Source of the DNA: Escherichia coli
GTDB lineage: Bacteria; Pseudomonadota; Gammaproteobacteria; Enterobacterales; Enterobacteriaceae
NCBI RefSeq assembly: GCF_013122565.1
Contig: NZ_CP053258.1
Strand: one strand, 5' to 3'
Length of the DNA: 64,000 nucleotides
Part shown: positions 1-8,389 of the stretch, one piece after another
How positions within the stretch are numbered: position 1 is the stretch's first letter
Layout: every line of letters starts with the position of its first letter
Program-made: the position numbers and the translations under genes
Notes under the pieces: model-generated
What the model was told of the DNA's origin: nothing
The model's input: the letters and a program-made list of their open reading frames with translations, nothing else
Database searches by the model: none

Positions 1-3000
1 CTTTGCCGTATCTTCTGCCACGGCGGTAATGGTCACCGTCACTGGCTTCATTTCGTACCCGCCATAGGTCAGGGCGTTAAATGTGAACGTATAGACACCA
101 GGCTTGCTGGTACTAAATGTACGCGTGATTTTTCCGCTCACGAAATGGTCATTTTTCGACGGCAGGAACTGATAATCCTTCTCCGTCACCCCTTCCGGCG
201 TCTGAATGTCGACCCACATATTCCCCCCAACGGGGTTGTTTGCCGACATCAGTGTCACCTCCAGCTTCGCAGTCGATTTCCCATCCGCCACCAGAGATTG
301 CACATCAGATGATGCGGTGAGTACCGCATTTTTATCATCCGCGACGAATTTAGATTCGGCAGTTTTCGTCGATACCTGACCGTTGTTCTGACTCACTTGC
401 GCCGTGAGTGTATATGTCGCCGCAACAGTAGTGGTAGCGGTGAAAATAGCCTGCCCTTGCTCATTCGTTGTCGCAGTGCCATTCGGTTCCAGGTTTAACG
501 AAGCCGGGCTGGCAGTCAGCGTCACTTCGCTATCTTTCAACAGGTTGTTATTGGCATCAGTCACCGTAACTTTATACGTTTGTTTGGCTTTGCCGTCCGC
601 CAGCGCATAGTTGCCAATCACCTCAATACCGGAGACGGTTGCGGTAGCCTTATCGGCTACAAACGTTATAGTCTGCGTATTCGAAGGCTGGCTATTCCCT
701 GCCGATGCCGTGATCTCATACGTTCCGGCAGTCACTGAAACCACCTGCAACTCTGCTTTCCCCTCATCGTTGGCTTTCACCCAGACATTATCGCCTGTAA
801 GCGGCTTGACACCCCGGGGCAGATTAAAGGTCACCAGGCTCCCTGGAACAGGGTTACCATTTTTATCCTCAACGGTCGCCGTCAGCGTAAAGGCATCTTT
901 GCCGTTTGCCACTTTTTGAACGGCGGTGTCTACCTGCAGGTTTGCCTGACCGGTGCTGGCATCCGCGTTGAATTTCACCGTGACCGTCTTCTGAGCACCA
1001 TTCACCGAAGCGGAAATATTGTGTTCTCCCGCAACCGTTGACATAAGCTCAATGTCCACTTTCCCTGCCGCATTGGTTGTTACTGTATTCCCCGTCTTGC
1101 TGGTCACACCCTGCGGTAAAGTCAGCGTAACTTCTTGCCCCTGCAACGGGTTACCATAGCTGTCCACGACGGTCAGGGTTATCTGGTTAGCAGACTGTCC
1201 ATTAGCCAGTTGGTTATTAACCTTCACTGTCATATCACGAATATCAGCCTGAGAAGCGTCCCCTGCAACGTTCAGCACCAGTGGCTGAGCAACAGCATTT
1301 TGGCCGTTCACTCGCGGCATCACAGACAACTGACCCGCAGCCGATCCCAGCGTTAAGGTCGCCACGTAGACCCCATTACCTTTCTCTGTCCAGTTTCCTG
1401 CTGAAGGACGCTCACTCCCCGTGCTGGCGGCACCGCTAAACACTGGTGCATCTGGCTTCAGCCCGGTGACCGGGTTCCCGTACGCATCCTTCACGGTGAA
1501 GGTGAGTTCCGTCGTCGTTTTGACGGTCGGAGCCTTATTGTCCGCAACAAGCGTAGAGTTCGCTGATGACATCTCTCCGGCGATGACCGTCAACTGCGCG
1601 GCTTCGGTGGCTGCTGGCTGGCCGTTGAAGAGCGGCATGACACGAAGCTCGCCCGTCTTTCCGCCTGTAGTCAACGTAGCAACATAGGAACCGTCACCTT
1701 TTTCGGTCCAACTGGAAACGGTCGCCCCTTCAGAGGCGGTCCCCGTCAAACTTGCCGACAACGCAAGACCACTGATAGCGTTGCCATGCGCATCTTTCGC
1801 CACCAGCATCACGGTTGTGCTTTCGCCGGCTTTTACGTGATCTTCTGCGACAGAGACTTTCGACTGGTTTGAAGATAACGCATCAGCCACCACGGTTACT
1901 TTTGCCGCATTTGCTGCCGCATCCTGTCCATTTAGCTTCGGCATAACTTCTAATTCACCCGCCGTAGAGCCGAGAGTAATCTGCGCAGTCCACGTCCCAT
2001 CACCATTATTTGTCCAGCCCGATGCCGTAGAACCTACAGCAGCGGCACCCGCTAATGACGGCGCTTCCGGCGTGAGGCTGGTCACAGGGTTGTCATAGGC
2101 ATCTTTTACCGTCCAGATTGCCGTAACTGTACCCCCAACCACCGGTTTATCAGGATTCAGGGTGATGGACGAATGTGCTGCATCAAGCGGCCCGGCAACA
2201 AACTTCAGCGTTTGTTGTAATGTGCCCAGCTGATACTGCTCGCTGAAGGCACGCACAACAACATTTCCTGCGCGAGTCGAAGAAACCGTAGCGCTGTAAA
2301 CCCCTGGTTTTATTTCCGAAATGGCACCAACGGTAACACCATTAATGTCTTGCGGAACAAGTCGCAGGCGGCTGGCTTCTCCCGTCACCGGATTACCCTC
2401 GGAGTCCACCGCAGTCAACGTCAACGTATAGGCTTGCTGACCATCAGCAACCACGTCACCTGACGGCTCGTTAGCGCTCAGGGTGGAGTTTGCCACATCC
2501 ATCATCGTGGCCCGCAGTTCTGCAGTGACGGTTTTGCTCATGCCATCAACGCTAACAGTAATCGTTGCCTCACCTGACTGCGTTCCGGTAGTAAAGACAG
2601 ACTGATACACCCCTGCTTCAGTTTCGGTGAACTCACCCAGTGTTGGCTTTGCCTGTGATTTAGTGGACTTCAGGGAACGAGTCACAATATTTCCAGCCGG
2701 TTTGAAGGCTAGTTCAGTCTTGATCTGATCTTTCATGCCCGTGACTGGCTGGCCCTCGGCGTCGCGCAGAGACAGCACCAGCGGTCTTTGCTCATTACCG
2801 TTAGCAAGCATTTGAATACGGCTCTGACCGTCAAGCGTTAACGCCGTGCGATCGGCACTCATACCTGCTCCGGTAATGACCACCTCTGTCTGCACGCGTT
2901 TTGAGGCATTGCCTTTGTTATCGTAGGCAACCGCAGAAATCGCATAATAATTGTCTTTGCCTGCCTGGTAAGCCGGGAGCGTCACTTGCCACTGATTACC

Positions 3001-4233
3001 CTGCCCCGTAATTTTTCCGCCTGCGGCCAGCAAAGACGGCGCTTCCCATTGAACATTTTTCAGACCGTGAGTTGCTTTACTCACCACAAGCCCCAGGGAA
3101 ACCGTCTGCCCGCCCTTGCCTTCAATACGTTCAGGCAGAGCAATACGGATCACTTCAGATTTGCGGTACTCAAGAACGATGTTGTTATTACGCTCAACCA
3201 GGTCATAGCGGCTGCCTGCCAGCATTCGACGCTCGCGAATGCTGTCTGTATCGAGTTGTTTTTGCAGAGGTTCGCCAATCCGATAATTAACTTCCAGGCC
3301 AAAGCGAGTGTCATTCTCACCACTCTTGCCCTGCTTATGCCCGGCACTCAGGGTCAGAAGAGGCACTGGCGTATAGGTCACCTCGGCAGAAATAGCATGC
3401 GGGTCTTTCTGGCGTTTATCTTTACCAAACAGCCCGACTTCATCGCCATAATACTGTTCATACATCAGGCTTGCGCCAAGCTGCGGCCAGGCGGGTAAAT
3501 AGCCCTCAGCACGAATATCCCAGCCATTCGCCGGGCGTTCCTGATAATCCTCAACATCCGGCGATTTTTTCCAGCCAGAAGCCCGGATATAACCATTGGC
3601 GCTCAGTTTCAAATAATCACGCCAGTATTCCGCACCAACACCAATGCGGGTATGACTACGGGATAAATCATGGTCGATAAAGGTGTTCACCCCCGCCATC
3701 CAGTCATTTCCTGAAAAATGACGCCAGCCAAAACCAATATTTGACTGAGTGCGATCATCTGTACGATGTATTGCCCCCTGAGTGAACAACATATTTGTCG
3801 GCGTATCATAAATAGGATAAAGCATTTCCAGAGAAGAATCCTTCAGCGAGAAATCTTTATCGACATTGAGTTTGACGCGCGCAGTACCGTATTTCCCGAG
3901 CCACTCCTGTATTTCCTGGTTAGCTTTAGCGGTGGCCATTCCGGTAATAAAGTTACGTGTCGCATCGCTATCTGGCTGACTGCTTAAAAAATTCCCAGCA
4001 TTTGCGGCAAACGACGCGACATTTTTCTCCACATTATTATCAGCAGCTACTGTGGTATTTTCCATGCTCAACCGTGGCTGAACCGCATGCTGCGCGCGTG
4101 CCGCCATTACTGGGGTAAAGGTGACCGCGAGTGGAAAAAGAACCTGAACAGAGATATTTGCCCACGCCACACAGCGGGCCAGAACTGAATAACGAAATCG
4201 TGGTTGTTTATGACCTGTTTTATAACGCGACAT
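1..4233 (-). CDS. eaeH: Intimin/invasin-like inverse-autotransporter adhesin with tandem bacterial Ig-like (Big) domains (EaeH/FdeC-like); start ATG at 4233-4231, 3' end runs off the window (>=1411 codons in window)
   Basis: Hand translation of minus strand from ATG at 4233 (AGGAAA RBS ~10 nt upstream) gives MSRYKTGHKQPRFRYSVLARCVAWANISVQVLFPLAVTF... then a beta-barrel-like region (GFGWRHFSGNDWMAGVNTFIDHD...) and many ~100-aa repeats of the type ...TLTVVDSYGNPLQGQEVTLTLPQG.... The ORF track omits it because it has no stop in the window. Frame continuity to position 1 was not checked codon by codon. Confidence 0.8.
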   Translation of the reverse strand, partial: MSRYKTGHKQPRFRYSVLARCVAWANISVQVLFPLAVTFTPVMAARAQHAVQPRLSMENTTVAADNNVEKNVASFAANAGNFLSSQPDSDATRNFITGMATAKANQEIQEWLGKYGTARVKLNVDKDFSLKDSSLEMLYPIYDTPTNMLFTQGAIHRTDDRTQSNIGFGWRHFSGNDWMAGVNTFIDHDLSRSHTRIGVGAEYWRDYLKLSANGYIRASGWKKSPDVEDYQERPANGWDIRAEGYLPAWPQLGASLMYEQYYGDEVGLFGKDKRQKDPHAISAEVTYTPVPLLTLSAGHKQGKSGENDTRFGLEVNYRIGEPLQKQLDTDSIRERRMLAGSRYDLVERNNNIVLEYRKSEVIRIALPERIEGKGGQTVSLGLVVSKATHGLKNVQWEAPSLLAAGGKITGQGNQWQVTLPAYQAGKDNYYAISAVAYDNKGNASKRVQTEVVITGAGMSADRTALTLDGQSRIQMLANGNEQRPLVLSLRDAEGQPVTGMKDQIKTELAFKPAGNIVTRSLKSTKSQAKPTLGEFTETEAGVYQSVFTTGTQSGEATITVSVDGMSKTVTAELRATMMDVANSTLSANEPSGDVVADGQQAYTLTLTAVDSEGNPVTGEASRLRLVPQDINGVTVGAISEIKPGVYSATVSSTRAGNVVVRAFSEQYQLGTLQQTLKFVAGPLDAAHSSITLNPDKPVVGGTVTAIWTVKDAYDNPVTSLTPEAPSLAGAAAVGSTASGWTNNGDGTWTAQITLGSTAGELEVMPKLNGQDAAANAAKVTVVADALSSNQSKVSVAEDHVKAGESTTVMLVAKDAHGNAISGLALSASLTGTASEGATVSSWTEKGDGSYVATLTTGGKTGELRVMPLFNGQPAATEAAQLTVIAGEMSSANSTLVADNKAPTVKTTTELTFTVKDAYGNPVTGLKPDAPVFSGAASTGSERPSAGNWTEKGNGVYVATLTLGSAAGQLSVMPRVNGQNAVAQPLVLNVAGDASQADIRDMTVKVNNQLANGQSANQITLTVVDSYGNPLQGQEVTLTLPQGVTSKTGNTVTTNAAGKVDIELMSTVAGEHNISASVNGAQKTVTVKFNADASTGQANLQVDTAVQKVANGKDAFTLTATVEDKNGNPVPGSLVTFNLPRGVKPLTGDNVWVKANDEGKAELQVVSVTAGTYEITASAGNSQPSNTQTITFVADKATATVSGIEVIGNYALADGKAKQTYKVTVTDANNNLLKDSEVTLTASPASLNLEPNGTATTNEQGQAIFTATTTVAATYTLTAQVSQNNGQVSTKTAESKFVADDKNAVLTASSDVQSLVADGKSTAKLEVTLMSANNPVGGNMWVDIQTPEGVTEKDYQFLPSKNDHFVSGKITRTFSTSKPGVYTFTFNALTYGGYEMKPVTVTITAVAEDTAK

Positions 4234-5128
4234 TGAGATAATTTCCTGATGAACGAATTAACGAACATATGCAGACACAAATAATGGCGTCTGCTTGTCA
4301 GAAAAACCGGGAATTTCCCGGTTTCCTTTTCCGCAGAAAAGGAAATACCTTTATGTAAGAAAGTGCACCGCCACCTAATATATTCAGTGTCTGTAGCCAC
4401 TCATCAGGTGGTTGGGCGCGGGATTATATTTTTATTTATGGGTGAAAATTTAGCTTTTTGTGCAAGTCATTAAAGTATGATTGTCACACTATATTCTCCG
4501 TTTAAATACAGTGAATATATTTTTATTTAAAGTGAATAATGATGTTCTGCTTTTAGTGACCACGATTAGAATTACGCCTAAAGAGGTATATGTTCATAAT
4601 AAGCCAATATTTTTTAAGGGTATTTATTTTCTTTCATCGGGCTATAAAATCCCGAAATATCGGATTTGCACAGCACCGATCAACAGTGCTTAAGCAGGCG
4701 GGTGCTGTTTACGACCAGGATAGTTAAGATAATATCCGGGAAAAGTTGGACATCAGCCCTGTAGAACCTGAATAAGTTCGCCTGACTTTACATAATCATG
4801 AACCGCGTTTTCGGAGCCACAGGCGGTACCAAAGTAAAAGGCTGGTGATGGGTACCTTTAGCCGAATCAGGTAGAAGTCATGAAATTCCCCCCTTAATCC
4901 ACAGCGTGTTCCTGAACTAACCATTCCGGATAGACTATTGGATCAAATTCAGGCATCGAAAGGAACAGGCTGTTTCCCGTTAAGGGATTAATTATCTATT
5001 TTCCTTAATAGATAACTGATGTAATACCTCTATTCAAATTTGTGATACATGTCAAAAAATTGGTTGACCAAACTCGTTATTTATATAAGGACACTTACGA
5101 AGTGCATTTTTAAAGCGAGGAAGTACCA

Positions 5129-5230
5129 ATGAAAGAGAATAAAGTACAGCAAATCAGTCATAAACTGATCAATATCGTTGTTTTTGTTGCAATAGTAGAA
5201 TACGCCTATTTATTTCTCCATTTCTATTAA
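5129..5230 (+). CDS. Small hydrophobic 33-aa protein (MKENKVQQISHKLINIVVFVAIVEYAYLFLHFY), predicted single-TM small membrane protein
   Basis: ATG preceded by GAGGAAG 8 nt upstream; polar N-terminus followed by one hydrophobic helix; inside an AT-rich intergenic region. Resembles the class of small membrane proteins annotated in the E. coli ykg region (possibly ykgR-like, from memory only). Confidence 0.4.
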   Translation: MKENKVQQISHKLINIVVFVAIVEYAYLFLHFY

Positions 5231-5290
5231 TAACGGCAATAAACTGTTCACTTTAGTGATATTTAAAATATGCATCCTTTTTCTGCTTTT

Positions 5291-5320
5291 CAAGCTGTTC
5301 AAGCTGTTCAAGCTGTTCAG
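5291..5320. repeat. Tandem repeat, 3.3 copies of the 9-bp unit CAAGCTGTT
   Basis: caagctgtt caagctgtt caagctgtt cag read directly in the AT-rich spacer. Confidence 0.9.
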
Positions 5321-5657
5321 CGGCGTAAGAGAAAGTATTGAGTATGAATTCGACGATTTAACCATATCTGTTTGATTGGTAATCATCCGTGATTAATGCT
5401 GGTCTATTGATTACGCCAGCATTAACCGCTTAGGGATGTATTCTTCCTGTTCATATACAGCCCTCGAAAAAGAGAGCAAATAAAACTGTGTCCAATATTA
5501 CTCTACCACTCCAGACCGAAGTATCGGTAGAATTAGCAGAACGGCTGGTACAGTAGATTGGGATAGCGTCATTTGTCAGGCATTCCATTGCCATAATAAT
5601 AATTATGAATCAATAGACGTGCTTCTTGATCATGTCTTAAAAATTATACCACGAGCC

Positions 5658-5888
5658 TTATGAAGCATCATTTTTACTGACTGGTGTTAACTTTGCTATC
5701 ATATAAACTCTGTTCTTAAAAAACGCGCCCAGAATTTTATATGATTTTCCTTGTTTTTCTGCCTGTAAAGAAATTTCTTTTTCAGTGCTGTCAATGGTTG
5801 AACCGACGGCAGTAATCGTTTTGGCGACGCTACTGAAAGATAATAAAGACAGTGTCATCACAACAATTAAAGAACAGATAGTATTCAT
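5658..5888 (-). CDS. Small secreted protein, DUF1471/YhcN-like (signal peptide + ~55-aa mature domain)
   Basis: ORF track 5658..5930; internal Met gives MNTICSLIVVMTLSLLSFSSVA (signal-peptide-like) then ...AEKQGKSYKILGAFFKNRVYMIAKL, matching the pattern of YahO/YjfY-type small periplasmic stress proteins. Start chosen at the internal Met; the printed sequence and ORF track appear to disagree by 1 nt here. Confidence 0.4.
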   Translation of the reverse strand: MNTICSLIVVMTLSLLSFSSVAKTITAVGSTIDSTEKEISLQAEKQGKSYKILGAFFKNRVYMIAKLTPVSKNDAS

Positions 5889-6103
5889 GCTAATTCTCCT
5901 GACAATTGAGAGGATGAGTTTTATATACATAGATATTAAACATGAGTCATATTTACTCCAAGAGAAAATACCCCTTCTGTAATTAAACCTTCATCTCCTT
6001 CGGAATGAGTAATGCATAATATAATGCATCTTGCTATGCAAAACAGTGGATATAAATTTTCCTCCCGACCTATTTAATAAAACGTGAATGTAAAAGTTAT
6101 TCT

Positions 6104-6841
6104 TCAGTTTGCAGATGCAGTGGGTCTGATGGTAATTTCGGTTGTATCAACGCTTTCGGGCGATTCAATAATATGCCTTACAGCACGGGCAATATCCGCA
6201 GGTTGAAGTGCAACAGAACGGTAGACATCCATTGCCTTCATGGTTTCCACATGGGTAATGGTTGAAGCCAGTTCACTTTCGACAACGCCAGGATTTACGC
6301 ATGTCACACGGATTTTCGAGCTTTCCTGCCGTAAGCCATCAGAAATAGCCCTTACTGCAAATTTTGATGCGCAATAGACTGCGCCTGTGGGCACAACAGA
6401 AAGGGCACCAATAGAACCAAGATTGATTATCTGACCGGAACCCTGTGCTTCCATCACCGGAAGTACAGCGCCAATTCCCCAAAGTACACCTTTGATATTC
6501 ACGTCTATAGTGAGCTCCCATTCATCCTGTTTTCCTGCTGCAAGCGGTGAAAGCGGCATAACGCCCGCATTATTGATAAGAACATCAACTCGCCCCCAGC
6601 TATCCAGCGCTGCTTGCACGAAATCGGCCATGGACTGTCGGTTTGTGACATCCAACTCCCGCGCTTTAGCAATTCCTCCTGCGCGGCAGATTTCGGTTGC
6701 AATGGCTTCGATACGCTCAACTCTGCGTGCGCCCAGTAAAACCTTTGCACCTGTCGTTCCCAGCGCTCTGGCAATACCTTCCCCAATACCACTTGATGCG
6801 CCGGTAATTAATATGACCTTATCCATTACGTTCTCCTTCAA
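6104..6841 (-). CDS. Short-chain dehydrogenase/reductase (classical SDR)
   Basis: ITGASSGIG Rossmann motif near N-terminus, NNAG, YCASK catalytic motif; 245 aa (alternative start at MDKVILITG). Confidence 0.85.
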   Translation of the reverse strand: MKENVMDKVILITGASSGIGEGIARALGTTGAKVLLGARRVERIEAIATEICRAGGIAKARELDVTNRQSMADFVQAALDSWGRVDVLINNAGVMPLSPLAAGKQDEWELTIDVNIKGVLWGIGAVLPVMEAQGSGQIINLGSIGALSVVPTGAVYCASKFAVRAISDGLRQESSKIRVTCVNPGVVESELASTITHVETMKAMDVYRSVALQPADIARAVRHIIESPESVDTTEITIRPTASAN

Positions 6842-6924
6842 ATGTGTTCGGAGAGAGAATAGAACTTTATGATTGGTTCCAGTATCCTGCTTTCAATGTA
6901 CTCAGTGGTTAGCGGCATTAAACA

Positions 6925-7824
6925 ATGAAAATCGATCTTAATCTTTTACCCATTTTTATCGCGGTAGCAGAAGAGAGTAATTTTAGTAAAGCCGCCGCAC
7001 GACTGGGCGTTACCCGTTCAGCGGTCAGTCAGGGAATAAGACGCCTTGAAGATGCATTCGGGACAATGCTTGTAATGCGGACCACGCGCTCAGTTAATTT
7101 GACGGAAGCGGGAGAACGGCTGCATAAATCGTTGTCATTACCTTTATCCGGTATTGAGGCAACGTTCGAAGAGATGGTTTCTGACCATGTGCCACGCGGA
7201 CTTCTCAGAATCGCGGTGACGTCGATAGCAGAAGAATTTCTTTCAGGTCCGCTAATCGCTTCGTTTGCAGCTGCCAATCCAGCCGTTACGCTTGATATTG
7301 TTGTAACGGATGAGGAATTCGATATCGTGGCCGCAGGTTACGATGCTGGCGTAAGGCTCGGAGAGGTCATTGAAAAAGACATGATTGCTGTGCCCATTAC
7401 CGGCAGGCAGCGTGAAATGGTCGTTGCCTCTCCCTCCTATCTCGCAGCCAACAGCACTCCTGTTCATCCGCGTGAACTTGTGAATCATAAGTGTATCGGC
7501 TGGCGTCAGTCCCCGGAGGTTGCGCCTTATCGCTGGCCATTTGAAGAAAACGGGAGAGCTTTCGACCTTGCGATTGAACCGCAGATTACGACTAATGATC
7601 TGCGTCTGATGTTGCGGCTGGCTCTTGCCGGTGGAGGAATAACAATTGCCACTCAGGAAACTTTCAGGCCGTATATTGAAAGCGGTAAGCTTGTATCGCT
7701 GCTTGATGACTTTCTTCCACAATTTCCGGGCTTCTATCTGTATTTCCCACAGCGTCGCAATATTGCACCAAAGCTCCGCGCCCTGATTGACCACGTCAAA
7801 GAATGGCGGCAGCAATTGACTTAA
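6925..7824 (+). CDS. LysR-family transcriptional regulator, divergent from the SDR gene
   Basis: N-terminal HTH (LNLLPIFIAVAEESNFSKAAARLGVTRSAVSQGIRRLE), 299 aa, LysR substrate-binding-like C-terminus; divergent 83-bp intergenic region with the SDR gene. Confidence 0.9.
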   Translation: MKIDLNLLPIFIAVAEESNFSKAAARLGVTRSAVSQGIRRLEDAFGTMLVMRTTRSVNLTEAGERLHKSLSLPLSGIEATFEEMVSDHVPRGLLRIAVTSIAEEFLSGPLIASFAAANPAVTLDIVVTDEEFDIVAAGYDAGVRLGEVIEKDMIAVPITGRQREMVVASPSYLAANSTPVHPRELVNHKCIGWRQSPEVAPYRWPFEENGRAFDLAIEPQITTNDLRLMLRLALAGGGITIATQETFRPYIESGKLVSLLDDFLPQFPGFYLYFPQRRNIAPKLRALIDHVKEWRQQLT

Positions 7825-8389
7825 ATGTCTGCACCTGCACGGCCTGATGTCAGAACAATATTTTGATGAATTGCCTACACCAGCTAGCCGCAGCACATTC
7901 TTGCATACGACATGTCTGCGGTTTACTTTTCACGCTCAAACCTTATGGTAAAGCACAATAATGATCCCCAGGGCTATATAAATGTTTTGTAATTAGCTCT
8001 TAAGACGAACTTTTCAGACTAACTTCTTTATTCATCCATAATGAAGACTGTATTAGGAAGTTCTCTAAAAACATGAATAACCACTGTCTTACAATGAATT
8101 TAGTTTACAGAACATTCTTATTGAGAAAAAACAACACTGTACACACCCAATAATATAGAAATGTAAATTTAAGTTTATTAATCTTTTGAATTATAATCAT
8201 AACTTTCTGTTAACCATTAGAATATCAATAGATTATAATCACTGAACACACATTTTTATAATTGCTATTCCCACACTCAAAATGCGCATCCCAATATCTT
8301 ATTTGACACTTTGTTGTTTGCTACTAGAGTTAATTGGGTGCTGACAAGGCACATGTTATTTACAAATTGGAAATCAGAGGAGAAATGAT

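Follow-up and report, generated by a model that had tools for sequence, protein, structure and literature searches.

Organization of the spacer between fdeC and the SDR gene

The window analyzed here is a stretch of 64,000 nucleotides of the Escherichia coli chromosome (contig NZ_CP053258.1). The subject of this work is the 1.9-kb spacer at positions 4234-6103, which separates fdeC from a gene for an SDR family oxidoreductase and carries the gene ykgR, coding for a membrane protein of 33 amino acids. The left edge of the spacer is the start codon of fdeC (ATG at 4233-4231, minus strand). The window contains the 5' part of this gene (1-4233, minus strand), which encodes the inverse autotransporter adhesin FdeC/EaeH and was assigned from its sequence and from the annotation of the homologous locus of strain 6EVA by the Prokaryotic Genome Annotation Pipeline (PGAP). 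On the right, the spacer ends at the stop codon (6104) of the SDR gene (6104-6841, minus strand), which matches the Pfam family adh_short with an E-value of 8e-54 and is also annotated by PGAP in 6EVA. The GC content is 32-43% inside the spacer versus 50-59% within fdeC.

Genome comparisons were carried out against 5,426 complete E. coli genomes, with K-12, 6EVA and the E. coli O55:H7 strain DEC5A serving as the main references. The proA-proB genes of the window are 99% identical to those of E. coli. The first 11.9 kb of the window are collinear with strains 6EVA and wlxctx60 at 95.8-95.9% identity, and these two are the only such strains among the complete genomes. In 6EVA, the order of genes given by PGAP is fdeC, a transcriptional-regulator pseudogene, a frameshifted hypothetical pseudogene, ykgR, a hypothetical protein and the SDR oxidoreductase.

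A preliminary description of the spacer had listed a small hydrophobic open reading frame (ORF), a 9-bp tandem repeat within a second, shorter ORF, two palindromes and a small secreted protein, and had likened the ensemble to a type I toxin or small-membrane-protein locus. All of these features are present in the sequence, and their coordinates needed only small corrections. It is very probable that the spacer is a decayed stretch, in which an intact ykgR stands amid gene remnants and whose layout would go back to a deletion of 19.4 kb. Besides ykgR, the parts that appear intact are the upstream region of fdeC and, probably, a gene for an exported Escherichia-specific protein of 76 amino acids. 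Four genes have left only their tails in the remainder of the spacer: the gene of a LysR-type regulator, that of an OYE flavin oxidoreductase (ykgP), ykgO (L36B) and ykgL. As the locus of ykgR, ykgP and fdeC, the region was known before this work; ykgR, the repeat and the chimeric ORF described below bring nothing novel.

The ykgR gene

The ORF at 5129-5230 (plus strand) is identified by its sequence as ykgR. Its product, YkgR, is known from publications as a small membrane protein of 33 residues with one C-terminal hydrophobic helix, the discovery of which is reportedly credited in reference lists to Hemm et al. 2008. The protein encoded in the window is 100% identical to K-12 YkgR. Its residues 1-33 align with positions 1-33 of the NCBIfam equivalog model NF041474 with a score of 78.1 bits, compared to a cut-off of 40. 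The initial designation of this ORF as a gene for a small membrane protein is borne out by this match, by the identity to the K-12 protein and by the existing publications.

The gene is preceded by a Shine-Dalgarno sequence, GAGGAAG, at 5117-5123, five nucleotides before the ATG codon. This motif is part of the promoter-proximal region at 5060-5128 (plus strand), and in an alignment of the window, 6EVA and K-12 about 120 bp on the 5' side of the gene, including the Shine-Dalgarno sequence, are nearly invariant. The position of ykgR beside ykgP and fdeC (eaeH) is conserved in the annotations of K-12, 6EVA and DEC5A, and PGAP annotates ykgR at the homologous site. The locus thus shares with K-12 ykgR (b4671) an identical protein, the Shine-Dalgarno sequence, the promoter-proximal sequence and the place beside ykgP and fdeC/eaeH. 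However, K-12 has a ykgM-ykgO operon downstream of ykgR, whereas the window keeps only about the last 12 codons of ykgO, and 338 bp ahead of the promoter region of ykgR are absent from the window.

According to two reports (PMC7549839, PMC12648545), YkgR is seen by western blot after induction, is cross-linked post-translationally to the signal recognition particle (SRP) and does not insert spontaneously into liposomes. A third report (PMC10470546) describes its cleavage by the RseP protease. The YkgR of the window would be translated from its own strong Shine-Dalgarno sequence and would span the inner membrane as a single helix, with SRP inserting it after translation and RseP cleaving it, as in this literature.

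When species-representative genomes were searched with a degenerate DNA pattern of the YkgR C-terminus, the only matches were in one Escherichia genome, E69 (88.8% identical), and in two tiny Bacillales contigs. The latter, contig122 of Sulfoacidibacillus thermotolerans (403 bp) and NODE_260 of Alkalicoccobacillus porphyridii (264 bp, coverage 0.79), carry ykgR DNA about 95% identical to that of the window. The presence of this DNA in Bacillales assemblies is likely a result of E. coli contamination.

Gene remnants upstream of ykgR

The C-terminal remnant of a LysR-type transcriptional regulator, a pseudogene with internal stops, is found at 4699-4806 (minus strand). It corresponds to positions 151-204 of the 209 positions of the Pfam family LysR_substrate with an E-value of 0.0093, which is below the threshold of significance of that family, and the LysR protein of DEC5A used as a tblastn query matches it with 28% identity (E = 5e-4). 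At the same position of 6EVA, the PGAP label reads 'transcriptional regulator, internal stop, incomplete'.

The frameshifted 3' remnant of an NADH-dependent flavin oxidoreductase (OYE) occupies 4849-4991 (plus strand). It comprises about the last 48 codons of the gene and corresponds to the K-12 pseudogene ykgP. In tblastn, residues 333-345 and 347-381 of the intact DEC5A protein align with it at 80-85% identity (E = 2.7e-15). Many strains, DEC5A among them, have an intact flavin oxidoreductase gene in their annotation.

An AT-rich palindrome starts at the stop codon of the oxidoreductase and extends over 4987-5020. It had been placed at about 4991-5022 in the preliminary description, and its presence there is confirmed with arms at 4987-5000 and 5007-5020. 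The two arms are complementary at 12 of 14 positions, a quality equaled in 7% of shuffled sequences, and the fold has a z-score of -1.7. In K-12 and DEC5A, a segment of about 338 bp separates the arms; it is absent from the window and from 6EVA. The K-12 form containing the 338-bp segment is present in 5,034 of the 5,426 genomes. The palindrome is less perfect in 6EVA, and it is therefore read, from the alignments, not as an operator but as a scar left by the loss of the 338 bp. Its proposed role as part of a toxin locus is not supported.

In K-12, the 338-bp segment (5370-5708 of the K-12 locus) is itself flanked by the same inverted arms, which are complementary at 14 of 17 positions as judged by eye. 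The window retains both inverted arms and has lost the interior of the segment alone.

Remnants of ykgO and ykgL downstream of ykgR

In most E. coli, K-12 included, the genes ykgM-ykgO, which encode the paralogues L31B and L36B, come next after ykgR in the same orientation, and beyond them lies the convergent gene ykgL. In the window, homology to the ykgR side of K-12 stops at 5278. Further downstream, blastn aligns the segment 5312-5457 with the final 30 nucleotides of ykgO, with the hairpin between ykgO and ykgL and with the ykgL 3' end (77.6% identity and E = 1.3e-26 for DEC5A; 74% and E = 8e-20 for K-12). The 3' end of ykgO is kept in frame at 5288-5341, and its stop codon is identical to that of ykgO. 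The frame in the window reads F-QAV-QAV-QAV-Q-RRKRKY-stop, and the end of YkgO is ...RFKAVQGRKKKR-stop. A gene for a type B L36 protein would be an intact ORF of 46 codons located after ykgM. Only about the last 12 codons of ykgO have a homologous counterpart in the window, but the 3' end, the stop codon and the downstream homology all agree with ykgO-ykgL. No ykgM was found anywhere in the 64-kb window.

The second small ORF of the preliminary description, with 23 codons at 5270-5341 (plus strand), extends over the ykgM-ykgO deletion junction (about 5283-5290). The ORF is present as described and no Shine-Dalgarno sequence precedes it, but it is not a gene. Because its codons 1-6 derive from the DNA downstream of ykgR and the rest is the ykgO tail, the alignments identify it as a chimera across the junction, left by the loss of ykgM and most of ykgO. 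The corresponding ATG of K-12 opens a frame of only seven codons, as read from the alignment.

The frameshifted 3' remnant of ykgL, about its last 25 codons, is located at 5379-5452 (minus strand), where tblastn with K-12 YkgL recovered EQEEYIPKRL and AVNAGVINRPALITDDY (E = 8e-4). A hairpin at 5393-5425, also reported by the palindrome scan, has a folding energy of -12.6 kcal/mol (z = -4.6) and aligns with the ykgO-ykgL intergenic hairpin of K-12. It corresponds to the hairpin of what was the convergent terminator of ykgO and ykgL, of which the T-run is missing. The window and K-12 are thus collinear here, with recognizable counterparts of the ykgO (rpmJ2) 3' end and stop codon, of the convergent intergenic hairpin and of the ykgL 3' end. 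In contrast to K-12, however, the window contains the tails alone, that of ykgO with an 18-bp expansion by two repeat units and that of ykgL with a frameshift.

The upstream region of fdeC

The segment 4234-4671 is the upstream, regulatory region of fdeC, and comparison with K-12 and with the other genomes shows that it is common to almost all E. coli. In 5,033 E. coli records, the part nearest to the gene (4225-4474) shows 95-99% identity and is conserved much better than the rest of the spacer. Over 4100-4671, the identity to K-12 is 87.7%. The distal part (4536-4671) matches the DEC5A DNA located directly before an aldo/keto reductase gene, and in other strains the counterpart of 4234-4671 is a divergent intergenic region between fdeC and this aldo/keto reductase gene.

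Two predicted RNA hairpins abut each other on the fdeC-sense strand, 70-110 nucleotides upstream of the fdeC start codon. Hairpin 1 (4323-4344, minus strand) has a stem of 9-10 bp with a UGCG loop, and this stem is the longest perfect one in the spacer. Hairpin 2 (4302-4322, minus strand) has a GC-rich stem of 7-9 bp at 4306-4322 followed by UUUUU. It resembles a terminator or attenuator and lies 70-90 nucleotides upstream of the start codon. In the DNA, these elements appear as the palindrome AACCGGGAATTTCCCGGTT at 4305-4323, which had been reported one base away at 4304-4322 and is otherwise upheld, and as an adjoining 10-bp perfect stem at 4322-4345.

In 300 dinucleotide shuffles of the spacer, a 10-bp stem occurred in only 2% and a stem of at least 9 bp in about 7%, and for this reason we consider the two abutting stems to be more than a chance occurrence. 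A 61-nucleotide piece containing both hairpins folds with an energy of -24.6 kcal/mol (z = -3.56). Across eight alleles, 96.9% of the stem cells are paired overall (100% in hairpin 1 and 91-100% in hairpin 2). With the exception of the loop-closing pair, all stem substitutions among these alleles result in G.U pairs on the fdeC-sense strand and in C.A mismatches on the opposite strand. By our own estimate, this bias amounts to approximately five events, with a p-value of roughly 0.03 under an even split.

The stem at 4306-4322 is GC-rich, is directly followed by a U-run and is kept among the alleles, as would be the case for a terminator or an attenuator. We considered whether it could be the terminator of an upstream co-directional gene. 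This was rejected because fdeC is divergent from its neighbor, the aldo/keto reductase gene, in the intact arrangement of DEC5A. The structure would most likely belong to a folded leader of fdeC or to an attenuator. The hairpins together with the U-run (4302-4344) may form a conserved leader attenuator or another regulatory RNA element controlling the FdeC adhesin, a tentative reading to which we assign a rather low probability. FdeC reportedly responds to temperature and H-NS, and the references of PMC11143625 list a study by Easton et al. 2014 with the title "FdeC is regulated by H-NS and temperature". As a candidate regulatory element, a terminator-like hairpin conserved in the fdeC leader is of modest value.

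The ORF of 76 amino acids

The ORF at 5658-5888 (minus strand) has a strong Shine-Dalgarno sequence, AGGAG, seven nucleotides before its ATG codon, and its predicted product of 76 amino acids starts with a signal-peptide-like segment. Cluster and profile searches classify it as a hypothetical protein restricted to Escherichia. Its relatives form 89 clusters, of which the named ones all belong to Escherichia or Shigella and none has a Pfam domain. The ORF probably encodes an exported protein that is specific to Escherichia.

This protein had been called a DUF1471-like small secreted protein. The ORF is present, but the likeness to DUF1471 (PF07338) is below the threshold, with 14.0-14.5 bits against a gathering cut-off of 27. 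When PF07338 was compared with the family of the 76-residue protein, eight of 13 members matched weakly (best E = 0.0044), and the NCBIfam model of BhsA gave 21 bits against a cut-off of 90. Like the YdgH-BhsA-McbA-like proteins of PF07338, the 76-residue protein has a signal-peptide-like N-terminus, a mature part of about 55 residues and a weak match to profile positions 8-40. Unlike them, its family scores far below the curated thresholds, is confined to Escherichia and has no match among the sequences of the PDB, as a profile search of the latter with the family returned nothing at E <= 10. The AlphaFold2 model of the protein, a single long helix with a mean predicted local distance difference test (pLDDT) score of 62, was too poor for use.

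Origin of the layout

Strain DEC5A carries two copies of ykgR in direct orientation. The full gene, at 4,198,830 (plus strand), is followed by ykgM, ykgO, ykgL, ecpRABCDE, ykgJ, yagU, paoABCD, an MFS transporter, a hydrolase and a LysR gene. A 5'-truncated copy, at 4,218,186 (plus strand), is followed by ykgO and ykgL tails, a small ORF, an SDR gene and the series LysR...thrW-proA-proB-phoE-crl-frsA-gpt. In the window, the downstream layout of ORFs matches this second order, in which a hypothetical protein and the SDR gene precede LysR...thrW-proA-proB-phoE-crl-frsA-gpt, and the sequence passes from the left side of ykgR copy 1 to the right side of copy 2.

The second, truncated copy is present in O157:H7, in O55:H7 DEC5A and in many other E. 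coli. It is accompanied by the same ykgO/ykgL tails, small ORF and SDR gene as in the window, and in the closest strains it is 92-93% identical to the window over 5162-6199. It differs from the window in that its ykgR is missing codons 1-11 and is separated from the full copy by 19.4 kb, whereas the window has a complete ykgR joined to these tails.

Recombination between the full ykgR and the 5'-truncated direct copy 19.4 kb downstream would delete approximately 19.4 kb of DNA. Such a deletion would remove ykgMO, ykgL, the ecp pilus operon, ykgJ, yagU, paoABCD and three further genes. The layout of the window, with fdeC-ykgR on one side and the small ORF and SDR gene on the other, fits a recombination-deletion between direct ykgR copies. 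A single event apparently cost the lineage ykgMO, with its zinc-independent L31/L36 paralogues, together with the ecp common-pilus operon and paoABCD, an observation of modest value.

We also note that ykgM-ykgO, ykgL, the ecp operon, ykgJ, yagU and paoABCD are missing in the window from their usual place between ykgR and thrW-proA.

Several observations weigh against this picture of the spacer. The diagnostic sites in the approximately 120 bp common to both ykgR copies are mosaic in the window. A single clean crossover between the copies was looked for and had to be rejected, and because the sites form a mosaic and do not mark one clean crossover, the recombination-deletion is a step that we only infer. 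The evidence for the fdeC hairpins comes from eight closely related alleles, it includes no two-sided change of a base pair, and the shuffle control was uninformative. Frameshifted alleles of the 76-residue ORF, with C-termini ending in ...FLRTEFI, are common in an alignment of public data, which suggests an ongoing pseudogenization of this ORF in the species. Finally, the reverse event, an integration, is formally possible.

In the case of an integration, the layout of the window would be ancestral, and the common layout would have arisen when about 19 kb of ykgMO-ecp-pao DNA integrated through ykgR-ykgO, so that the ykgO tail would not be a deletion scar. Deletion and integration between direct repeats are formally the reverse of each other, and the mosaic pattern of sites in ykgR speaks in favor of such a scenario. 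However, an intact ykgO-ykgL unit is clearly the source of the ykgO and ykgL tails and of the hairpin between them, and layouts of the window type occur in just two of the 5,426 complete genomes. We regard integration as unlikely, and the anatomy of the spacer would in any case be unchanged under it. The preferred reading is that of a deletion between the two ykgR copies.

The question of a type I toxin-antitoxin locus

The proposal that the spacer holds a type I toxin locus would have YkgR as a membrane-depolarizing toxin, the translation of which is blocked by a nearby antisense RNA, with the repeat and the palindromes being parts of the regulatory RNA. YkgR is indeed small and hydrophobic, and the available part of one report (PMC10470546) places it in a class of RseP substrates together with the Hok toxins. 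Furthermore, the plus strand at 4623-4640 is complementary to the start region of ykgR (5126-5143) at 16 of 18 positions, which none of 200 shuffles reached. Nevertheless, the remaining evidence makes this proposal very improbable. YkgR has no Pfam match at E <= 1 to the toxin families (Hok, Ldr, TisB, Ibs, ShoB, ZorO, DinQ and others), and the sole NCBIfam match of the 33-residue peptide is the YkgR model, leaving it with no toxin family in either collection. An Rfam scan of 3000-8000 at E <= 1 found no antitoxin small RNA (sRNA) and nothing within the spacer. Promoter-like sites are at the level expected from shuffles (8 found, 8.5 expected). The repeat and the palindrome are accounted for as deletion debris.

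The complementarity at 4623-4640 is unusual in the window, but it drops to 15 of 18 positions in 6EVA and to 14 of 18, the chance level, in K-12 and DEC5A, while the start of ykgR is invariant. Because it is not conserved in these strains, we rejected it as a functional element, and by this comparison it is regarded as a lineage-specific chance occurrence. The reverse strand at 4623-4640 reads ATGAAAGAAAATAAATAC, which resembles the first codons of ykgR.

In the available sections of the YkgR literature (PMC7549839, PMC10470546), the protein was overproduced from pBAD and detected, toxicity is not mentioned, and YkgR is set apart, as a small membrane protein, from the Hok toxins. In comparison to the type I loci of E. 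coli (hok/sok, ldr/rdl, tisB/istR, ibs/sib, shoB/ohsC and zor/orz), ykgR has in common a small hydrophobic peptide and an AT-rich intergenic setting. It differs in having no toxin family match, no match to an antitoxin RNA, no conserved complementarity and, in those sections of the literature, no report of toxicity. The toxin part of the preliminary description finds no support in the family searches, the Rfam scan, the promoter-like sites or the strain comparison.

The significance of this result is small. It removes a false toxin lead, in which the repeat-bearing mini-ORF and the palindrome are scars of deletions, and the case shows that apparent small ORFs and repeats in the AT-rich spacers of enterobacteria can be gene remnants.

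The 9-bp tandem repeat

Tandem Repeats Finder (TRF) places the repeat of the unit GCTGTTCAA in the ykgO remnant at 5285-5319, with a period of 9, 3.9 copies, 96% matches and a score of 63. The array is the same as the one described earlier at 5291-5320 with 3.3 copies, which had omitted the imperfect first unit. Six other alleles (6EVA, E69 and four truncated second-module copies) contain a single GCTTTTCAA|GCTGTTCAG doublet, and the window has 18 additional bases, which equal two units. A query of 130 nucleotides across the repeat had no match above 90% in the 5,426 complete E. coli genomes, and a scan of metagenome contigs for at least two repeat units gave 104 matches, zero of which were at this locus. 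The RNA fold of the repeat region is no better than that of shuffles (z = -0.17).

Judging from these alleles, the repeat is a strain-private slippage expansion, by two units, of a pre-existing imperfect doublet in the dead ykgO tail, and it has no predicted function. The number of copies does differ between strains (3.9 in the window and 1.9 in the others), but the difference is due to a single expanded allele. As a mark of a toxin or small-protein locus the repeat fails, since it sits in the leftover 3' end of ykgO.

A contingency locus, in which the varying length of the repeat would modulate a real 23-residue peptide or the 3' untranslated region of ykgR, would agree with the difference in copy number and with the unit being in frame and keeping the 23-codon ORF open, but it is just as improbable as the toxin: a 9-bp unit cannot switch the reading frame, there is one expanded allele and none in the complete genomes or the metagenome contigs, the ORF has no Shine-Dalgarno sequence, its start comes from unrelated DNA and the same ATG opens seven codons in K-12, and the fold is at shuffle level. 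Simple-sequence contingency loci vary in a number of units that changes the frame or the promoter spacing of an expressed gene, and the repeat shows no such variation.

A match outside the spacer

The Rfam scan also reported a weak match at 7889-7929 (minus strand), after the LysR gene and outside the spacer, to the 3' hairpin of the Shigella sRNA CssrB. Its score is 20 bits against a gathering score of 76 (E = 0.72), and it is probably only a terminator hairpin.

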